A stretch of DNA of 64,000 bases from Rhodoferax sp. (lineage in GTDB: Bacteria > Pseudomonadota > Gammaproteobacteria > Burkholderiales > Burkholderiaceae_C). The DNA is taken from positions 82,579 through 146,578 of the forward strand of contig NZ_JAQTWL010000005.1 of the NCBI RefSeq assembly GCF_028689295.1, given 5' to 3'. Below are positions 25,252-32,781 of the stretch, one piece after another (positions within the stretch are counted from its first letter, which is position 1; each line of letters opens with the position of its first letter). The position numbers were made by a program, and so were the translations under genes. The notes under the pieces are model-generated. The model ran no database searches and had not been told where the DNA came from. It saw nothing but the letters and a program-made list of their open reading frames with translations.

Positions 25252-25806
25252 ATGCTGAATGTCAGTGTGCCCCACTACCTGCGCGAGCACATCCGCACCG
25301 TGCCCGACTGGCCCGCGCCAGGCGTGCAGTTTCGCGACATCACGCCGCTGCTGCAGGACGCCAAGGTGTTCCGGGTGCTAATCGATGCCTTTGTGCACCG
25401 CTACATGGACCCCGCGCGTCGCCCCGACGTGGTGGCCGGGCTCGATGCGCGCGGTTTCATTCTGGGTGCCGTAGTGGCTTATGAACTGGGTGTGGGCTTC
25501 GTGCCGATCCGCAAAAAAGGCAAGCTGCCCTTTACCACTGTCGAGGAAACCTACGAGCTGGAGTATGGCAGCGCCACCGTCGAACTGCACACTGACGCCG
25601 TCAAACCAGGCCAGCGCGTGCTGCTGATCGACGACCTGATCGCCACCGGCGGCACCATGATGGCGGGCAAGAAGCTGCTGGAAAAATTGGGCGCCGAGGT
25701 GACCGAGGGCGCCGTGATCGTCGATTTGCCCGAGCTCGGCGGCTCCGACAAGCTGCGTGCAGCAGGTCTGACGCTGTTCACCCTGGTTGATTTTTCTGGC
25801 CATTGA
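25252..25806 (+). CDS. apt: Adenine phosphoribosyltransferase
   Basis: [37 protein letters not shown] motif. Confidence 0.97.
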
Positions 25807-25829
25807 GGCCGATTGATGCGCGTCGCCAG

Positions 25830-26105
25830 ATGAAAGACCATTACGCCGCCCTGGACCTGCGCCCGTCTGCCACGCTGGCCGACATCAAAAAAGCCTTTCG
25901 ACAGCAGGCTGCCATTCACCACCCCGACCGCAACAGCGCTGCTGATGCCGCGGCACGCTTTCGGCTCGTACAGACGGCCTACGAGGTGCTGTCAGACCCC
26001 GACAAGCGCAAGGCTTATGATGACAACCGCCAGCGGAACCTGCTCGACAGCCCGCTCGACACCGCACGCGTCATTTGGCAAGATTACTTCAGCCGCATTG
26101 TTTGA
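25830..26105 (+). CDS. Minimal J-domain protein (91 aa)
   Basis: DHYAALDL...IKKAFRQQAAIHHPDRN...AYEVLSDPDKRKAYD with intact HPD; only about 25 aa beyond the J domain. Confidence 0.92.
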   Translation: MKDHYAALDLRPSATLADIKKAFRQQAAIHHPDRNSAADAAARFRLVQTAYEVLSDPDKRKAYDDNRQRNLLDSPLDTARVIWQDYFSRIV

Positions 26106-26698
26106 TGCCTTACCCCACACCCGAGAACGCCATGAGCATGTCCGCTTTTTTCCGCGCGCTGCGCACCTCCTACCAGGCCGAGATCGACGATCTCTCATTT
26201 GACTCGGAGGGTCGCAATGTGCTGCGCCAGCGCCTGTTGGAAAAGCGCGGGCAGATCACGTTCCTGAAGCAGATGATGGAGCTCAGCCCCGAGATGGTCG
26301 CCGTCATTTTTCATGGCGGCTTCCACTTTGAAGAGCCGGCGGTGATGGAGCAGGTGCTGACGCTGGAGTCCGATGAATTTCCCGACTGGAGCAGCCTGGG
26401 TGACGCCGTGCAGCTGACCCCTTGGGCGCAGGAGCTGGCTGATGCCTTGTTGCCGGAACCGCAGGGCGATTGGTTCATGGTGGTCGCGTCGGCGCTGGAG
26501 TATTTGTACCACCGGCCCTCGCCGCATCAGCTCGAAGCTGCGGCGCATGGCGATGAATCAGAGAGTGAACACGGCGCTACCCGTCGCCGCGACCATGGCG
26601 ATGATTTTGACAAGGACGACGAGCGCCATCACGACCAAGACCATGACGAAGCCAGCGCCCAGTGGCTGGAAGACCAGGGCTTTGACCGCAAGGAATAA
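26105..26698 (+). CDS. Hypothetical protein with Asp/Glu/His-rich tail
   Basis: TGATG overlap with J-domain gene; host-like codon usage; no recognisable family motif. Confidence 0.8.
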   Translation: MPYPTPENAMSMSAFFRALRTSYQAEIDDLSFDSEGRNVLRQRLLEKRGQITFLKQMMELSPEMVAVIFHGGFHFEEPAVMEQVLTLESDEFPDWSSLGDAVQLTPWAQELADALLPEPQGDWFMVVASALEYLYHRPSPHQLEAAAHGDESESEHGATRRRDHGDDFDKDDERHHDQDHDEASAQWLEDQGFDRKE

Positions 26699-26743
26699 GG
26701 TGCGTCAAGCACAACGACAACATTGAAACCAAGGGAATATCGT

Positions 26744-27487
26744 ATGCAGCATTTGGCCTTGATTGAAAAAACCCGGTCCCTGATTGCCGCCGGCGACATC
26801 GTCGGTGCCGAGTCTGCGTTGGTCGAACTCGCCGACCGCGAAGGCGACGGCGCGCTGATGGAGGTGCTGCAACAGTTGCCGCCAAAGGACGTGCTGGCGG
26901 TGATTCGAGAGTACGACGGCTCGCGCGCCTCCATCATCAACCTGATGCTCACACCCGAGCAGTTCGCCCGCGCCGTGGTCATTGAAAAACAGTACCGCGA
27001 CCTGACCCGCAGCCATTTGCGCGGCATGATGAACTCGATCATTTTCCGCGACGGCGCCGACCCGCTGGCCTTCATCAACGCCATCGGCGACCTAGAAGGC
27101 GGCGCCGAGGCGTTGGCCGACTATTTTGAAGAAAAATGGAGCCGCATCGAGGCCTTTGCCCGCACCGGCACCTTCGACACGGTCGAGGACGACGGTGCCG
27201 TCCTGTCCGAAGACGACTTGCGCGCCAACGCCTATGCGAGCGCCCGGCTCGACCAGGATGAAGTGGCCGACTCCGACTGGATGCAACTGGCCTGGCTGCT
27301 GCGCTACGAAAACCCTGACCTGTTCATTGAAATGCTGCTGGTGCTGCGTGCCAAGGCTCGCGCTTTCGAGCTGGGTCTGGATGAAGAGGACATGGCCGAG
27401 GACGACGGCAAGTTTGAAACCAGCGCCACCGACCGCGGCCAAGCCACGCCCGCCGCCATCGACCCCGACGAAGAATCCGCGATTTGA
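26744..27487 (+). CDS. Hypothetical acidic alpha-helical protein
   Basis: 247 aa, host-like codon usage, AAGGGA upstream of ATG 26744. Confidence 0.82.
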   Translation: MQHLALIEKTRSLIAAGDIVGAESALVELADREGDGALMEVLQQLPPKDVLAVIREYDGSRASIINLMLTPEQFARAVVIEKQYRDLTRSHLRGMMNSIIFRDGADPLAFINAIGDLEGGAEALADYFEEKWSRIEAFARTGTFDTVEDDGAVLSEDDLRANAYASARLDQDEVADSDWMQLAWLLRYENPDLFIEMLLVLRAKARAFELGLDEEDMAEDDGKFETSATDRGQATPAAIDPDEESAI

Positions 27488-27512
27488 GCCTTGCGCCTTG
27501 CCACTGATTCCC

Positions 27513-28730
27513 ATGACGCCGCCCAAGCCTGAAGCCACCCATGGCGTGTCGCTGTTCGACGCGCGGCCCTTCTTTGAGAAGGCCGTGTCCTACGGCATGC
27601 AGCACGGTCTGCTCGACCCGGTCAAACTGGCTGCCATGGCCGAGGAGGCGGCCAAGGGCATGGTGCAGATTGCGCACTATTTCGGCAGCGAGTATTTGCG
27701 CCCCGAACTTGAAAAGGCGCGCGACCGGCTGGTCAACCTGGTCAGTCTGCACCTGCAGGACGCCAGTCAGGGCGACCTGCGCGTGGCCGCCGAACTTCTG
27801 CGCGACCACTCCCTGCTGTCGCGCTCCAAGGCCGGCTCCGACCTGCTCAAGGCACTGATCGTGATGCCGCAAAACACCCACTTTGGCATGAACGAGCGCG
27901 GGGCTTTTAGCGACCGCCACTTGCCGCAACTGGCGCGCTGGTCGCTGGCCAGTTATGGCGACTACCAGGCCGAGTTTCTGGCGCGCCAGCACGCCGTGCA
28001 GGTGGTCGAGGCTGCGCTCTGGTACGCCGACCAGTTGGGCCTGTCGGCCGACGACCTGCAAGACGCCGAGCCCGATGCCGAGGCCGTCATCCGCACCGCA
28101 CTGCTGCTCAACATGGCGCGACGCAAGGAGTTACCCGATTGGGTTGCTTTTGAAAAACTGATCGTGGCGCTGCGCCAAAAGCAGCCGGCGCCTGAGCTGT
28201 TGGAGCTGCCCAAAAACCTGCCCGAGGCTTACCATGCTGTGGTGGAGACCGTGCGCCAGTCGGTGCTGGCGGACTGGCCGCGCTTGCTGGATAGGCGCCT
28301 GTCGCCGCGCAAGCTGTTCGACCAGACGCCTGCTTTCATGGGCCGCTACTTCTGGCTCGAAGACGCCTTGAGCGAAGTCGGTCAACATGACCGGAGCCGC
28401 TCAGCCGCCTGGGACAAGCTCACCCAGGGCCACAGCGATGATGGCACCGTGCTCACGCTTTGCCTGTGCGTGGCCACCGGCAGCGCGCTCAAAACCCTGT
28501 TGACCGACAAGACCGCCGCCACGCTGGTGCGCAAAATTCGCAAACACGCCTGGCAGCCGGAGTTGGCCACCCACTATCTGCAGGCGCATGCGCCGGAGCA
28601 GCATCTGGATGATTTCATCAGTCTCTGGCAGGATTTTGTCCATGAGTCGCAGGCAACCCTGCTCAGCGACCGTGACGGGAAGCTGCAAGACGCGCTGGCG
28701 CTGCTGCGCCGCGAGTGCAATGTGGCCTGA
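27513..28730 (+). CDS. Hypothetical alpha-helical protein (about 405 aa)
   Basis: Track ORF 27126..28730 trimmed to ATG 27513 so it does not overlap the previous gene; host-like codon usage from there on. Confidence 0.82.
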   Translation: MTPPKPEATHGVSLFDARPFFEKAVSYGMQHGLLDPVKLAAMAEEAAKGMVQIAHYFGSEYLRPELEKARDRLVNLVSLHLQDASQGDLRVAAELLRDHSLLSRSKAGSDLLKALIVMPQNTHFGMNERGAFSDRHLPQLARWSLASYGDYQAEFLARQHAVQVVEAALWYADQLGLSADDLQDAEPDAEAVIRTALLLNMARRKELPDWVAFEKLIVALRQKQPAPELLELPKNLPEAYHAVVETVRQSVLADWPRLLDRRLSPRKLFDQTPAFMGRYFWLEDALSEVGQHDRSRSAAWDKLTQGHSDDGTVLTLCLCVATGSALKTLLTDKTAATLVRKIRKHAWQPELATHYLQAHAPEQHLDDFISLWQDFVHESQATLLSDRDGKLQDALALLRRECNVA

Positions 28731-28756: not shown

Positions 28757-28844
28757 GGAAGCGTGGCAGAGTGGTCGATTGCACCGGTCTTGAAAACCGG
28801 CAACCCGCAAGGGTTCGTGAGTTCGAATCTCACCGCTTCCGCCA
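28757..28844 (+). tRNA. tRNA-Ser (anticodon TGA)
   Basis: GGAAGCG...CCGGT CTTGAAA ACCGG, long variable arm AACCC-GCAA-GGGTT, GTTCGAATC T-loop, CGCTTCC GCCA; 88 nt. Confidence 0.97.
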
Positions 28845-29217
28845 GAGGGCCTTGTTTCATGCGGGTTTCAAGGCGTTCAAATAGCTCTACCCCCCATAAA
28901 ACCCGCCAATTCAGAATGTGGTTGATTTGGGCAGACAAACAGCCAAACATCCTGTTTGACAGGAAATGACGGCGCAGCCGTGCAGCACCACCAGCCAGCG
29001 GCCAACAGCACCGCGCGGCGCCAGCCTCTCAATACCGCTTCCGCTTCGCTGTCATCAGGGCTGCGCCCCGATACCCCGGTCGGCGCTGGTTGGCGTGGTC
29101 TTCCAATTTTGAAGGTTGATTTGTTGCCGTCATTGGCGCAGCCTTGTCAGGAGTGGACAGCCATATCACCTTGGATACGGGGGATGCACTGGCTGCAATC
29201 CCACGCTGTATGCAAAA

Positions 29218-29237
29218 TACTGTATTTTTCATCAGGG
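29218..29237. promoter_or_regulatory. Putative LexA (SOS) box
   Basis: TACTGTATTTTTCATCAGGG: CTG-N10-CAG core with a consensus TACTGTAT left half. Confidence 0.5.
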
Positions 29238-29242
29238 GGATG

Positions 29243-29269
29243 CATACCGGACATTTTGTCCGGTATGAT
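29243..29269 (+). promoter_or_regulatory. Palindromic operator overlapping the methylase -10 box
   Basis: CATACCGGACA-TTT-TGTCCGGTATG (perfect 11-bp arms, 29243-29267); TATGAT at 29264-29269, 8 nt before the ATG. Confidence 0.8.
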
Positions 29270-29277
29270 CACCTATC

Positions 29278-30546
29278 ATGGACACACGCTTAACCACCCT
29301 GAACGACAGTGCTGCACTTGAATACCTTGCAGCGGCACGCCTGCATCACTCGCAAGCTGCCATTGCCAAGCATCTTGGTGTCAGTGAGCGGCAGGTCAGG
29401 CGCTGGGAGGCCAGAGAGTCGAGCCCGCCCCAGTATGTTGGCATGGCTTTGCAACGGCTTTTGCCGTTCCAGCCAGTCACCAACCCGAATGCAGATTTCA
29501 AATTTATTGATTTATTTGCGGGTATCGGTGGCATCCGGCTGGCCTTTGAGGACATTGGCGGTGAATGCGTGTTCACGAGCGAATGGGACAGCTACGCGCA
29601 GCGCACCTACATGGCCAACTTTGGTGGGCAGCACCCGATCAATGGCGACATTACCCAAATACCTGCGGACGACATTCCAGACCATGACGTTCTTCTGGGT
29701 GGTTTTCCCTGTCAGCCGTTTTCAATTGCAGGCGTGTCCAAGAAGAATGCACTCGGCCGGGCGCATGGTTTTGCTGATGAAACGCAGGGCACGCTGTTTT
29801 TTGACGTAGCGCGCATCATTGCAGCCAAACAACCCAAGGCATTCTTGCTTGAGAACGTCAAAAACCTGCAGTCCCATGACAAGGGTCGCACCTTTGCCGT
29901 GATTCTGCGCACATTGCGCGACGAACTTGGCTATCAGGTTTTCCACAAGGTGATCGACGGGGCTCACTTCGTGCCCCAGCACCGGGAACGCATCATCATC
30001 GTCGGCTTCCGTGACCCGGTCGTCTTTAATTGGGACATGGTTGACCTGCCAGCAAAAGGAACACGCACACTGGGTGAAATCATCCACAAGAAGGCTGCTG
30101 AACCAGCGCTTGAAGCGGATGGCGTCAACTATTACGACCATGCTAAACACAAGGTACTGGACAAGTACACTTTGACCGACAAACTCTGGCAATACCTGCA
30201 AAACTACAAAATAAAGCATGCCGCAGCAGGCAATGGTTTTGGGTTTGGTCTGGTCACGAAAGAAGGTGTGACGCGAACGCTTTCGGCACGTTACTACAAG
30301 GACGGTTCGGAAATCCTGTTCAGCCAAGGCGCCAAGAAGAACCCCCGCCGCCTGACACCGCGTGAATGCGCCCGGCTGATGGGCTTCCCGGACTCGTTCA
30401 AGATTCCGGTGTCGGACACGCGCGCGTACAAGCAATTTGGAAACTCTGTGGTTGTACCGGTCATGGCAGCAGTAGCACGAGCCCTGCAGCCATTGATTGT
30501 TGAAGCCGTGCAGAATGACAGTGAACCCATCCGCCGCGCGGCTTGA
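29278..30546 (+). CDS. dcm: C5-cytosine DNA methyltransferase, Dcm/M.EcoRII-like, with N-terminal HTH
   Basis: FAGIGG (I), GFPCQPFS (IV), ENV (VI), QHRERI (VIII), [14 protein letters not shown] (Dcm/EcoRII-type TRD), [13 protein letters not shown] (IX), [10 protein letters not shown] (X); N-terminal [23 protein letters not shown]. Confidence 0.95.
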
Positions 30547-30564
30547 ATGGAAAGGACTCAGATC

Positions 30565-30825
30565 ATGAATGACATTTCACGCACTTCGGACATGCCCTCG
30601 GCTTCACGTTCTTGCGATGCCAAGGGGAAGTTGTTCAAAAAGGGGGACTTCGTTTCCATCCTTCCTGCGTTTCAGGATGCCGGTGATGACCAATTTACAT
30701 GGGTGGTTATGGCCGACGAGGAGAAAGGACGCGTCGATATCTGCCCGGTCAATTCGAGTCTGACCATCAAGCCGGTTTACACATTGCAGACTGGCCAGAT
30801 CACCTTGCGACCGGCAAACACTTGA
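30565..30825 (+). CDS. Small hypothetical protein (86 aa)
   Basis: AAGGA RBS 8 nt before ATG 30565; fills the gap between methylase and vsr on the same strand. Confidence 0.6.
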   Translation: MNDISRTSDMPSASRSCDAKGKLFKKGDFVSILPAFQDAGDDQFTWVVMADEEKGRVDICPVNSSLTIKPVYTLQTGQITLRPANT

Positions 30826-30885
30826 GTTGACTATGCGGGTCAACGCTGGGATGGATTGGGGTTGTCCGTCACGGGCACTGCCGAC

Positions 30886-31356
30886 ATGGCAGACGTAGTT
30901 GATGCGGCCACCCGCAGCCGGATGATGGCCGCCATCAGGGGCAAGGACACCAAACCTGAAATGCTCATCCGTCGAGCCCTTCATGCCAGAGGCCTTCGTT
31001 ACCGCCTTCATGACCCGGCGCTTCCGGGCAAGCCGGACTTGGTATTCCCCCGATACCGAGCCGTACTGTTTGTAAATGGCTGTTTCTGGCACGGCCACGA
31101 CTGTCGTTACTTCAAGATACCAGCTACCCGCACCGAGTTCTGGACTGAAAAAATCAATGCCAACCGACTACGGGATGAGCGCCAGATAATGCTGCTCAAG
31201 AAGCAAGGGTGGCGAGTGATGGTAATCTGGGAATGCACAGTTCGTGACCGCACATCTTTTGACCAATTGACTGCAACAGTGCACGACTGGATTACCAACA
31301 ATCAAGCCCCTCAAACCGGGGCGGCTTCCATCCAACAGGTTCAAGATGTTCACTGA
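30886..31356 (+). CDS. vsr: Very short patch repair endonuclease
   Basis: DVVDAATRSRMMAAIRGKDTKPE, LPGKPDLVF, FVNGCFWHGHDC, GWRVMVIWEC. Confidence 0.97.
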   Translation: MADVVDAATRSRMMAAIRGKDTKPEMLIRRALHARGLRYRLHDPALPGKPDLVFPRYRAVLFVNGCFWHGHDCRYFKIPATRTEFWTEKINANRLRDERQIMLLKKQGWRVMVIWECTVRDRTSFDQLTATVHDWITNNQAPQTGAASIQQVQDVH

Positions 31357-32599
31357 CAAAATTACAGACTACTTCGAAGGCGTTGCTGCGAAGTACCTGA
31401 GTGTGGTCGATGCTGACCCGGAACGCTCGAACGGGCATGAAATAGGAGGGCTTCCTGCGGCAGGTGCCAAGAGTTGGCTTGGAACGCCCGGCAAAGGTGA
31501 GGGGCAGGAAATCAGGTATCAGGCTCAGCAGGTCTACATTTCAGACGAGCTGGACGAGCCGCTCATCTACGAGAGCAGCGTTTCTTGGTACGACTCGCGG
31601 CGAAACAAACCTGCCCGGAGCCCGGAATATCGGCTGTACTACGAGGATTCGCCGGTAACGCTACAGTTCAAGCCCGGCGATTTTTTGCTGATAGCCAAGC
31701 ACCGCGATGGTCGGCTCTTGATGGTATTGGCTCCGCCGCAAAGCTCTGTTGAGAAGCAGCTACGCGTAATTTTCGGCTTGTCGGAAATCGATGAGGACTT
31801 TAATGCCGGTAATCTAGAGTCATCGATGCTCCTTTTACCACTGCGGTTGCTGCTTGAAACCCTTGGTTTTGAGTTGAGCAAGCCTGCGGCTGACGATGGA
31901 ACATGGCTGGATCGGCTAATGGCCGAGTTCGGCGACAAGCAGTTTCCGAGTACTGAGCGCTTTTCCACATTTGCAAGAAAGTCGCTGGAGAACGAGGTAG
32001 ACCCTCTCCGGTTCCCTGACAAGACTCTAATGGCGTGGATGGAACATGAGGAAAAGCTGTTCCGCATTTACGAATGTCATTTCGTGATGAAGCGCTTGGA
32101 CGTTGGTTTCTCTGCCGATAGTCATGGGGTAGAAACTTTCATCAGCTATTCGCTGAGCGTGCAGAACCGCCGGAAATCCCGAGTCGGCCATGCTTTCGAA
32201 GGCCACATCCGCAATCTTTTCAAGAAACATGCTCTCAAATTCGAGCAGGGCGCGAAGGCCCTTGTGACTGAAAACAGTGCGCGGCCAGATTTCCTGTTTC
32301 CCTCGTTCAGCGCATACCACGACAAAACTTTCCCCACCGAAAGCTTGATTATGTTGGGTGCAAAGACAACCTGCAAAGACAGATGGCGACAGGTTCTCAG
32401 TGAAGCCGCCCGAATCGAGTCCAAGCACCTGATTACGATGGAGGCGGCCATCAGTGAGGCCCAGACCAATGAGATGGTTGCCCACAAGCTGCAGCTTGTC
32501 ATACCGACAGCCATGCACACAACATTCAATGAAGGTCAGCGGGCCCAGTTGCTGGATGTCAGCGGCTTCATTGATATGGTCAAATCCGTACAGCGATAA
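31346..32599 (+). CDS. Type II restriction endonuclease, EcoRII-like
   Basis: C-terminal NRRKSRVGHAFEGH, RPDFLFP, AKTTCKDRWRQVLSEA motifs matching the EcoRII catalytic domain; N-terminal about 145 aa probable DNA-binding effector domain. Confidence 0.92.
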   Translation: MFTDKITDYFEGVAAKYLSVVDADPERSNGHEIGGLPAAGAKSWLGTPGKGEGQEIRYQAQQVYISDELDEPLIYESSVSWYDSRRNKPARSPEYRLYYEDSPVTLQFKPGDFLLIAKHRDGRLLMVLAPPQSSVEKQLRVIFGLSEIDEDFNAGNLESSMLLLPLRLLLETLGFELSKPAADDGTWLDRLMAEFGDKQFPSTERFSTFARKSLENEVDPLRFPDKTLMAWMEHEEKLFRIYECHFVMKRLDVGFSADSHGVETFISYSLSVQNRRKSRVGHAFEGHIRNLFKKHALKFEQGAKALVTENSARPDFLFPSFSAYHDKTFPTESLIMLGAKTTCKDRWRQVLSEAARIESKHLITMEAAISEAQTNEMVAHKLQLVIPTAMHTTFNEGQRAQLLDVSGFIDMVKSVQR

Positions 32600-32781
32600 C
32601 CCCCGCTTTTACGCGCAAGGTCTTGCGACTTGGGGTTGTTGTTTCGGTCACACGCCGGAAAGTATTTCTGTGTGAATTGTCCGGGTTGGCCCATGGACTA
32701 ATTGCCAAATCAGTGTTTCGCAACAGTCAATCAGTGCCGATGAAGATCGGCAACACCGACGAGCCTACGGGCAATGTCCCT

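Follow-up and report, generated by a model that had tools for sequence, protein, structure and literature searches.

The window is a stretch of 64,000 nucleotides from a Rhodoferax genome. Between apt and a tRNA-Ser gene it carries four open reading frames, all on the + strand, with products of 91, 197 or 188 (depending on the start retained), 247, and 405 amino acids (Table 1). Coordinates and flanks agree with the co-oriented four-gene cluster of the preliminary description, and so do the gaps of 45 nt between genes 2 and 3 and of 25 nt between genes 3 and 4. The first gene begins 23 nt after apt and the last one ends 26 nt before the tRNA gene. Codon usage had been called host-like, and the composition bears this out, with a GC of 0.61–0.64 and a GC3 of 0.72–0.82 in the four genes vs. 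0.55 and 0.62 in the downstream methylase islet (a low-GC Dcm islet). The scan for promoters and terminators gave no signal above background.

Table 1. Features of the putative atcJABC locus and its flanks (positions in the window)
Feature	Coordinates	Strand	Description	Basis
apt	25252-25806		left flank	NF002634, 295 bits
atcJ (gene 1)	25830..26105	+	91-aa class C J-domain protein: J-domain and ~25-aa C-terminal tail	Pfam DnaJ, NCBIfam AtcJ
HPD tripeptide (AtcJ)	25920..25928	+	H31-P32-D33, DnaK-contact motif	read from sequence
P75-X7-W83 (AtcJ tail)	26052..26078	+	P75-LDTARVI-W83, published AtcC-binding determinant	read from sequence
atcA (gene 2)	26132..26698	+	188 aa from conserved Met (197 aa if TGATG start 26105)	NF047888 AtcA
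atcB (gene 3)	26744..27487	+	247-aa acidic all-alpha protein, presumed RNA-polymerase-binding component	family alignment, NF047889 via relatives
Asp pair (AtcB)	26846..26917	+	D35 (26846-26848) to D58 (26915-26917), equivalent of RNAP-binding Asp pair	spacing 23
atcC (gene 4)	27513..28730	+	405-aa all-alpha adaptor, long form typical outside Shewanella	NF047890 AtcC
tRNA-Ser(tga)	28757-28844		right flank	

Gene 1 encodes, as first described, a J-domain protein with an intact HPD at positions 31–33, and its residues 3–64 correspond to Pfam DnaJ (E 9e-22). With the NCBIfam AtcJ model NF050028 (E 4.8e-13), residues 1–87 of the protein align with positions 1–93 of 93, the tail included; the other NCBIfam matches of this gene are generic DnaJ models. 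The HPD and the P-X7-W of the tail are both present in all 78 AtcJ orthologs (78/78). The Trp of P-X7-W is essential for AtcC binding in the systems studied (PMC6715715; preprint 10.64898/2026.09.07.749886). H31Q mutants have been made in the AtcJ proteins of Shewanella oneidensis and of Collimonas, where the HPD has the same numbering as in the window, and W83R is a mutation tested in Collimonas arenae AtcJ (preprint 10.64898/2026.09.07.749886).

In gene 2, the longest open reading frame spans 26105-26698, and the TGATG overlap with gene 1 that had been proposed is indeed present in the sequence (26103-26107). It is, on the other hand, probably not the real gene junction, because the invariant first Met of 39 AtcA orthologs corresponds to M10 of this frame and the upstream start is absent in most of them. 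The start of atcA is, thus, most likely at 26132, which would leave a gap of 26 nt after atcJ. The protein matches NF047888 (AtcA) with an E of 0.0035, and 22 of the 39 orthologs match the same model (best E 7.7e-7), with no other consistent match. It consists of a globular N-terminal part followed by a disordered tail rich in Asp and Glu (15 of the last 37 residues), the length and sequence of which vary among orthologs. Such an acidic tail is described for AtcA (PMC6715715; preprint 10.64898/2026.09.07.749886).

Genes 2–4 were said to encode soluble, acidic, helical proteins. Their pI values (4.5, 4.2, and 6.0, respectively) and the lack of any hydrophobic 19-mer resembling a membrane helix agree with that statement, as do the AlphaFold (AF2) models of genes 3 and 4, all-alpha in both cases (AtcB, pLDDT 87.9 and pTM 0.82; AtcC, pLDDT 88.1 and pTM 0.62).

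The product of gene 3 does not match the NCBIfam AtcB model NF047889 directly, and the link is transitive only: family representatives are related to the window protein with E from 1e-30 to 1e-111, and 5 of 33 such representatives match NF047889 (best E 3.4e-9). In 4 of 20 Burkholderiales genomes there are matches to NF047889, located at the loci of the AtcB relatives. In the alignment of the 33 diverse family members, D35 and D58, 23 residues apart, are nearly invariant, and G-D-X22-D occurs in each of the 79 Comamonadaceae orthologs (79/79). The Asp pairs needed for binding to RNA polymerase are D37/D60 in S. oneidensis, D28/D51 in Collimonas, and D33/D56 in Janthinobacterium B9-8, with a spacing of 23 throughout (preprint 10.64898/2026.09.07.749886). 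AtcB homologs of Oxalobacteraceae are ~45–50% identical to the window protein, and the homolog clusters include Dechloromonas and Deefgea, both listed as atc-bearing by the Atc authors (preprint 10.64898/2026.09.07.749886). A profile search with the most divergent AtcB group returned nine rare proteins (one of them labelled Candidatus Gracilibacteria), and Shewanella proteins were absent from its results. When NF047889 was searched against 400 sampled Gammaproteobacteria genomes, nothing scored above the cut-off and the single weak match is probably spurious. Two giant repetitive proteins (P0209 and P0272) that match AtcB residues 27–78 many times are fn3/MucBP surface proteins, and were discarded as compositional artefacts.

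The gene 4 protein matches NF047890 (AtcC) with an E of 6e-4 over its N-terminal part (residues 17–112 on model positions 10–106 of 297). The same model is matched by 29 of 41 AtcC orthologs (best E 1.7e-5), and no other family is. The length of AtcC is known to vary between lineages (PMC6715715; preprint 10.64898/2026.09.07.749886). AtcB and AtcC were also considered as two halves or paralogs of each other, an idea rejected because hhalign gives a probability of 0.8%, as for unrelated proteins. Sequence searches of the PDB gave no match for either protein, and Foldseek comparisons of the two models with the PDB gave none below an E of 0.19.

The order J-A-B-C and the common strand are kept in 76 of the 80 Comamonadaceae loci, and in the other four the cluster is cut by the end of a contig, so that the arrangement is far beyond chance. 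A locus search with an alignment of 12 AtcB sequences returned only loci of the Comamonadaceae type. The flanking genes differ from locus to locus while the four genes stay together, and the cluster, present as one copy per genome, tracks host relatedness. Among the carriers are relatives from Rhodoferax and Polaromonas, glacier MAGs included. The co-occurrence of all four genes, which the preliminary description had put forward for a neighborhood check, is in this way borne out for Comamonadaceae. Conservation decreases in the order B > J > C > A, in agreement with the published ranking of constraint, which runs from AtcB at the top to AtcA at the bottom (preprint 10.64898/2026.09.07.749886). 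On the host side, the genome encodes DnaK (940 bits) and, in RpoC, a basic helix KKNTKR equivalent to KKLTKR of Escherichia coli (E. coli residues 215–220).

The Atc ("adaptation to cold") system was described in 2019 in S. oneidensis (Maillot 2019, PMC6715715) and has since been extended to Betaproteobacteria, with Rhodoferax named among the atc-bearing genera (Figure 7 of preprint 10.64898/2026.09.07.749886). For genes 1, 2, and 4, the only specific NCBIfam matches are AtcJ, AtcA, and AtcC, in the corresponding gene order. All bit scores fall below the equivalog cut-offs (AtcJ, 49 for a cut-off of 150; AtcA, 17 for 200; AtcB, no match for 440; AtcC, 19 for 370). Those cut-offs are annotation thresholds for close orthologs and not the family definition of the Atc authors, who used BLASTP and synteny (PMC6715715; preprint 10.64898/2026.09.07.749886). 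The identity as Atc rests on gene content and order, diagnostic motifs, family-level similarity, and the DnaK and RpoC helix of the host, and it is very likely that the cluster is the atcJABC operon in the form it takes in Rhodoferax and other Comamonadaceae. It had been presented as unassigned and as a candidate for an undescribed system. That claim fails because the genes map to an already characterized pathway, the very outcome that had been named as speaking against it; the system is known and has already been recorded from Rhodoferax.

Compared with the system of S. oneidensis MR-1 (SO_1850, SO_1849, SO_1848, SO_1846; PMC6715715), the order J-A-B-C is common to both. In both, AtcJ has ~91–94 residues, the HPD at 31–33, and P-X7-W toward its C-terminus, the tail of AtcA is acidic, and AtcB has ~250 residues with two Asp 23 positions apart. 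The Trp of AtcJ, however, is at position 83 in the window and at 89 in S. oneidensis. AtcC has a similar N-terminal region, but 405 residues here vs. 298 in the S. oneidensis type, with a different C-terminal part. Overall the similarity is low, with scores under the equivalog cut-offs and an AtcB not directly detectable, and the position 23 nt after apt belongs to the lineage of the window, unlike S. oneidensis. The system of Collimonas arenae Cal35, also of Burkholderiales, shares with the window the "long AtcC" type of Betaproteobacteria and an intact P-X7-W (preprint 10.64898/2026.09.07.749886). Its H31 and W83 in AtcJ have residue numbers identical to those of the window, and its Asp pair in AtcB (D28/D51 vs. 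D35/D58) is equally spaced. Collimonas belongs to Oxalobacteraceae, whereas the window belongs to Comamonadaceae. A more distant parallel is offered by HscB-IscU and other class C J-proteins that have the partner gene as a neighbor. In these, as proposed here, a minimal J-protein uses its region outside the J-domain to bind a single partner from the operon and thereby gives Hsp70 a dedicated task. In HscB-IscU, the partner and pathway differ (Fe-S cluster assembly with HscA), and the homology between HscB and AtcJ is confined to the J-domain (E 0.063 for the HscB model).

A mechanism can be proposed, likely to apply here by homology to the systems of S. oneidensis and Collimonas arenae. On RNA polymerase, AtcB would dock onto the basic helix of the beta-prime subunit, and D35 and D58 would make the contact. 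AtcC would bind AtcB and, in addition, the P75-X7-W83 tail of AtcJ, and the J-domain of AtcJ, with its HPD, would recruit and activate DnaK. DnaK would then limit or remodel the complex between AtcB and RNA polymerase. Chaperone activity would thereby be coupled to transcription and support growth at low temperature, with AtcA and its acidic tail as an accessory protein. For the window, we infer all of these protein contacts and the cold phenotype from the literature. The earlier idea of a dedicated DnaK module acting on the partners encoded in its own operon was essentially right in the light of the match to Atc. The view of the three other proteins as simply clients of DnaK departs in one detail from the published model, in which AtcC serves as an adaptor by binding to the tail of AtcJ and RNA polymerase is the binding partner of AtcB.

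A cluster with true Atc homologs could have a role other than cold adaptation, for example a general chaperone-gated control of transcription in other stresses or growth transitions. The cold role is known from a single species, S. oneidensis (PMC6715715), neither target genes nor a mechanism of action beyond the complex of AtcB with RNA polymerase are known even for Shewanella, and the longer AtcC with its different C-terminal part would fit such a divergence. We consider this unlikely: the functional motifs are all conserved, the Rhodoferax and Polaromonas relatives with the operon include glacier MAGs, and Atc is reported to be overrepresented among psychrophilic and aquatic lineages and to be missing from thermophiles (preprint 10.64898/2026.09.07.749886). 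The Atc assignment itself could be mistaken, if the cluster were another J-domain operon, with no kinship to Atc, whose number of genes and short motifs match by coincidence. The HMM scores, all under the curated cut-offs, and the gene 3 product, with no direct match to the AtcB model, would be compatible with such a coincidence. It is nevertheless highly improbable: three proteins each have the matching Atc model as their sole specific match and in the right order, these matches recur over dozens of orthologs, the motifs agree to the residue number, and Rhodoferax and its Burkholderiales relatives are listed as atc-bearing by the Atc authors (preprint 10.64898/2026.09.07.749886).

The cluster might, finally, be a chaperone-dependent toxin–antitoxin or defense-like module, in which AtcB would be a toxin of RNA polymerase restrained by AtcC, AtcJ, and DnaK. 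AtcB is toxic when overproduced, with AtcC and AtcJ rescuing through DnaK (preprint 10.64898/2026.09.07.749886), and the operon lies just upstream of tRNA-Ser and adjoins the Dcm (restriction–modification) islet. The toxicity, however, appears only on overproduction, and deletion of atcB harms growth in the cold and brings no benefit (PMC6715715). With a host-like composition, a single copy per genome, four genes that remain together despite changing flanks and track host relatedness, and a reported vertical inheritance of Atc (preprint 10.64898/2026.09.07.749886), a toxin or defense function has very little to recommend it, and an Atc system remains by far our preferred reading.

Two terminal motifs are conserved across their families. 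AtcB ends in EESA[IL]-COOH after an acidic linker of low confidence, and the C-terminus of AtcA, after the acidic disordered region, reads W-x4-QGFDRK[DE]. Neither motif is mentioned in PMC6715715 or in preprint 10.64898/2026.09.07.749886. One or the other might be a determinant of the contact between AtcB and AtcC or a segment engaged by DnaK, a quite speculative assignment that we hold to be improbable; such tails could function rather like the EEVD tails of eukaryotic chaperone networks. They provide small leads on how AtcB, AtcC, and DnaK engage each other.

The value as a discovery is small, given the description of 2019 and the catalogued presence in Rhodoferax; the practical value lies in annotation. 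Public records label these proteins "hypothetical" because the Atc scores fall under the equivalog cut-offs, and automatic names of AtcB include MgtE-like and FliG. The mislabelling arises because the Atc models of NCBI were fitted to sequences of the Shewanella type, and the Comamonadaceae alignments with the motif positions would allow correct annotation. As to MgtE, the recurring partial match in the Foldseek comparisons is to the cytoplasmic N-domain of MgtE only (probability 0.4–0.5), and Pfam MgtE_N is matched by 3 of 33 AtcB family members (E 0.009), both of them weak hints.

The four genes between apt and tRNA-Ser, confirmed as co-oriented on the + strand by ORF listing and translation (see table), very probably form an operon of the Atc family. 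The Atc system was first described in Shewanella oneidensis, as an operon atcJ-atcA-atcB-atcC with atcJ first; AtcJ binds DnaK via its HPD motif and AtcC via a 21-aa tail, AtcC binds AtcB, and mutants lacking AtcJ, AtcB or AtcC grow very poorly at low temperature (Maillot et al. 2019, PMC6715715). In the AtcJ tail, the Trp of a P-X7-W motif is essential; AtcB uses two conserved Asp of its own to contact RNA polymerase at a basic helix of RpoC, and DnaK, recruited by AtcJ-AtcC, limits the AtcB-RNAP complex (preprint 10.64898/2026.09.07.749886). The same preprint finds the operon in 294 reference proteomes, mainly of Beta- and Gammaproteobacteria, with a constant gene order and an AtcC of variable length, and names Rhodoferax among the genera that bear it. 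The preliminary description had rightly seen a module dedicated to DnaK; its claim of an undescribed system falls, since Atc is known and Rhodoferax already catalogued.

Features of the probable atc locus and its surroundings (window positions)
Feature	Position	Strand	Product or model match	Basis or remark
apt	25252-25806		NF002634, 295 bits	left flank
gene 1 (atcJ)	25830-26105	+	91 aa	ORF listing and translation
gene 2 (atcA)	26105-26698	+	197 aa	as listed ORF
gene 3 (atcB)	26744-27487	+	247 aa	ORF listing and translation
gene 4 (atcC)	27513-28730	+	405 aa	ORF listing and translation
tRNA-Ser(tga)	28757-28844			right flank
Dcm-type cytosine methylase	29278-30546		TIGR00675, 335 bits	first in low-GC block

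The intergenic gaps, 45 and 25 nt, agree with the first description. The TGATG overlap between genes 1 and 2 is present (26103-26107), but the real start of gene 2 is most likely at 26132, 26 nt past gene 1, and the start in the overlap is probably unused, because the invariant first Met of 39 orthologs aligns with M10 of the window ORF and most of them have no earlier start. The resulting gap agrees with the short ones (8-24 bp) of the family (Maillot et al. 2019, PMC6715715). The atcJ start follows the apt stop by only 23 nt (25806-25830) and no promoter-like site was found; atc may thus share a transcript with apt in this lineage.

The decisive lead is an NCBIfam scan of the four window proteins. 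Gene 1 does encode a J-domain protein with an intact HPD (Pfam DnaJ, E 9e-22; H31-P32-D33) and matches the AtcJ model ("cold adaptation protein AtcJ", 93 positions) along its entire length, including the tail (E 4.8e-13). The sole matches of genes 2 and 4 are AtcA (E 0.0035) and AtcC (E 6e-4, in the N-terminal 100 residues and seen again on the genome); gene 3 has no NCBIfam match. The AtcA model is matched by 22 of 39 gene 2 orthologs (best E 7.7e-7), the AtcC model by 29 of 41 gene 4 orthologs (best E 1.7e-5) and the AtcB model by 5 of 33 gene 3 relatives (best E 3.4e-9), and no other family recurs in these scans. The AtcB model also picks out, in four further Burkholderiales genomes, the very loci that gene 3 identifies; these matches span model positions 30-88, the region with the two Asp. 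The link to AtcB is thus a transitive one by sequence (from the window protein to its relatives to the model), backed by motifs and literature. All window scores are far below the NCBI equivalog cut-offs, hence the "hypothetical" labels in public records; none of 400 sampled Gammaproteobacteria genomes reaches the Atc cut-offs.

The gene 1 tail (...DS-P75-LDTARVI-W83-QDYFSRIV) holds an intact P-X7-W, with H31 and W83 numbered as in the Collimonas arenae AtcJ mutants H31Q and W83R; HPD and P-X7-W are both kept in 78/78 Comamonadaceae orthologs. Aligning 33 diverse full-length members of the gene 3 family shows D35 and D58 to be almost invariant, and G-D-X22-D occurs in 79/79 Comamonadaceae orthologs. 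Their spacing (23 residues) is that of D37/D60 in Shewanella, D28/D51 in Collimonas and D33/D56 in Janthinobacterium B9-8 (preprint 10.64898/2026.09.07.749886). The C-terminal region of gene 2 is Asp/Glu-rich and variable in length, like AtcA as described there.

The initial reading of soluble, acidic and helical products holds for genes 2, 3 and 4: they are acidic or near-neutral (pI 4.5, 4.2 and 6.0), none has membrane-type hydrophobic stretches, and genes 3 and 4 are confidently predicted by AlphaFold to be all-alpha (pLDDT 88; pTM 0.82 for AtcB and 0.62 for AtcC, apparently with two lobes). Foldseek against the PDB gives no neighbour below E 0.19 for either model, and no sequence relatives of either were found there. 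The AtcB model bears a weak, partial likeness to the cytoplasmic N-domain of MgtE (Foldseek probability 0.4-0.5), and Pfam MgtE_N matches 3/33 gene 3 family members (E 0.009); this likeness, which probably underlies the automatic UniRef names "MgtE-like" and "FliG", is not used as support for the identification. AtcB and AtcC show no detectable relationship to each other.

The full set in J-A-B-C order on one strand is present in 76 of 80 loci taken from Rhodoferax, Polaromonas, Acidovorax, Limnohabitans, Curvibacter, Hydrogenophaga, Aquabacterium and other named genomes; contig ends cut the other four. Adjacency to apt is confined to the two closest relatives and that to tRNA-Ser to the ten closest; it is therefore the four genes that form the conserved unit. 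By identity the order is B (69-97%) > J > C > A (38-83%), in agreement with AtcB as the most and AtcA as the least constrained (preprint 10.64898/2026.09.07.749886). A phmmer search of the whole library with gene 3 gives only 186 clusters at 50% identity, some from Glaciimonas, Undibacterium, Dechloromonas/Ferribacterium, Deefgea and Aromatoleum; Dechloromonas and Deefgea are listed as atc-bearing in the preprint. Homologs occur in 21/301 sampled Burkholderiales genomes (18/143 genera). A rare divergent AtcB-like group (protein records P0233, P0235, P0236, P0245, P0261 and P0359, one labelled Candidatus Gracilibacteria) has its Asp pair mostly at 37/60, as numbered in S. oneidensis.

A look-alike of Atc arising by chance is very unlikely. 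A toxin-antitoxin or defence-like module is also unlikely: the operon is single-copy (as gene 3 is in the window's own genome), apparently inherited vertically, and host-like in composition, as first noted, with GC and GC3 resembling neighbouring core genes and differing from the downstream methylase islet. It is possible that the operon is a true Atc homolog with another physiological role, and a function in cold growth specifically is favoured less firmly than membership in the family, although still rather likely.

For the Atc reading, both the cold phenotype and every protein contact are inferred by homology. AtcB would dock via D35 and D58 onto the RpoC basic helix, and AtcC would link it with the W83 tail of AtcJ, whose J-domain would fire the DnaK ATPase at the AtcB-RNAP site; DnaK would then limit or remodel that complex, a chaperone-gated adjustment of transcription that would aid growth at low temperature, with AtcA as a putative accessory protein. 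The window's assembly encodes DnaK (940 bits), and the RpoC helix is kept (KKNTKR vs. KKLTKR at E. coli 215-220). Two full-length rpoC genes are present in this assembly, both beyond the window (G000:C38:108-4145 and G000:C71:8213-12253; 1772 and 1758 bits), reflecting either strain mixture or contamination, or a real duplicate.

Small residual leads are two family-wide C-terminal motifs, mentioned in neither PMC6715715 nor preprint 10.64898/2026.09.07.749886; the latter states that the determinants of the AtcB-AtcC contact are unknown. AtcB ends, past a low-confidence acidic linker, in EESA[IL]-COOH (27470-27484, residues 243-247), as do 78/79 Comamonadaceae orthologs, with SA[LI] ending most of the 33 diverse members. 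AtcA ends, after an acidic disordered region, in W-x4-QGFDRK[DE] (26663-26695). Both are possible docking motifs.

Right after tRNA-Ser, GC drops to 0.53-0.55 (vs. about 0.63) over 28845-32600, where several co-oriented ORFs follow the Dcm-type methylase; this block probably represents a restriction-modification islet that has integrated at the tRNA gene.
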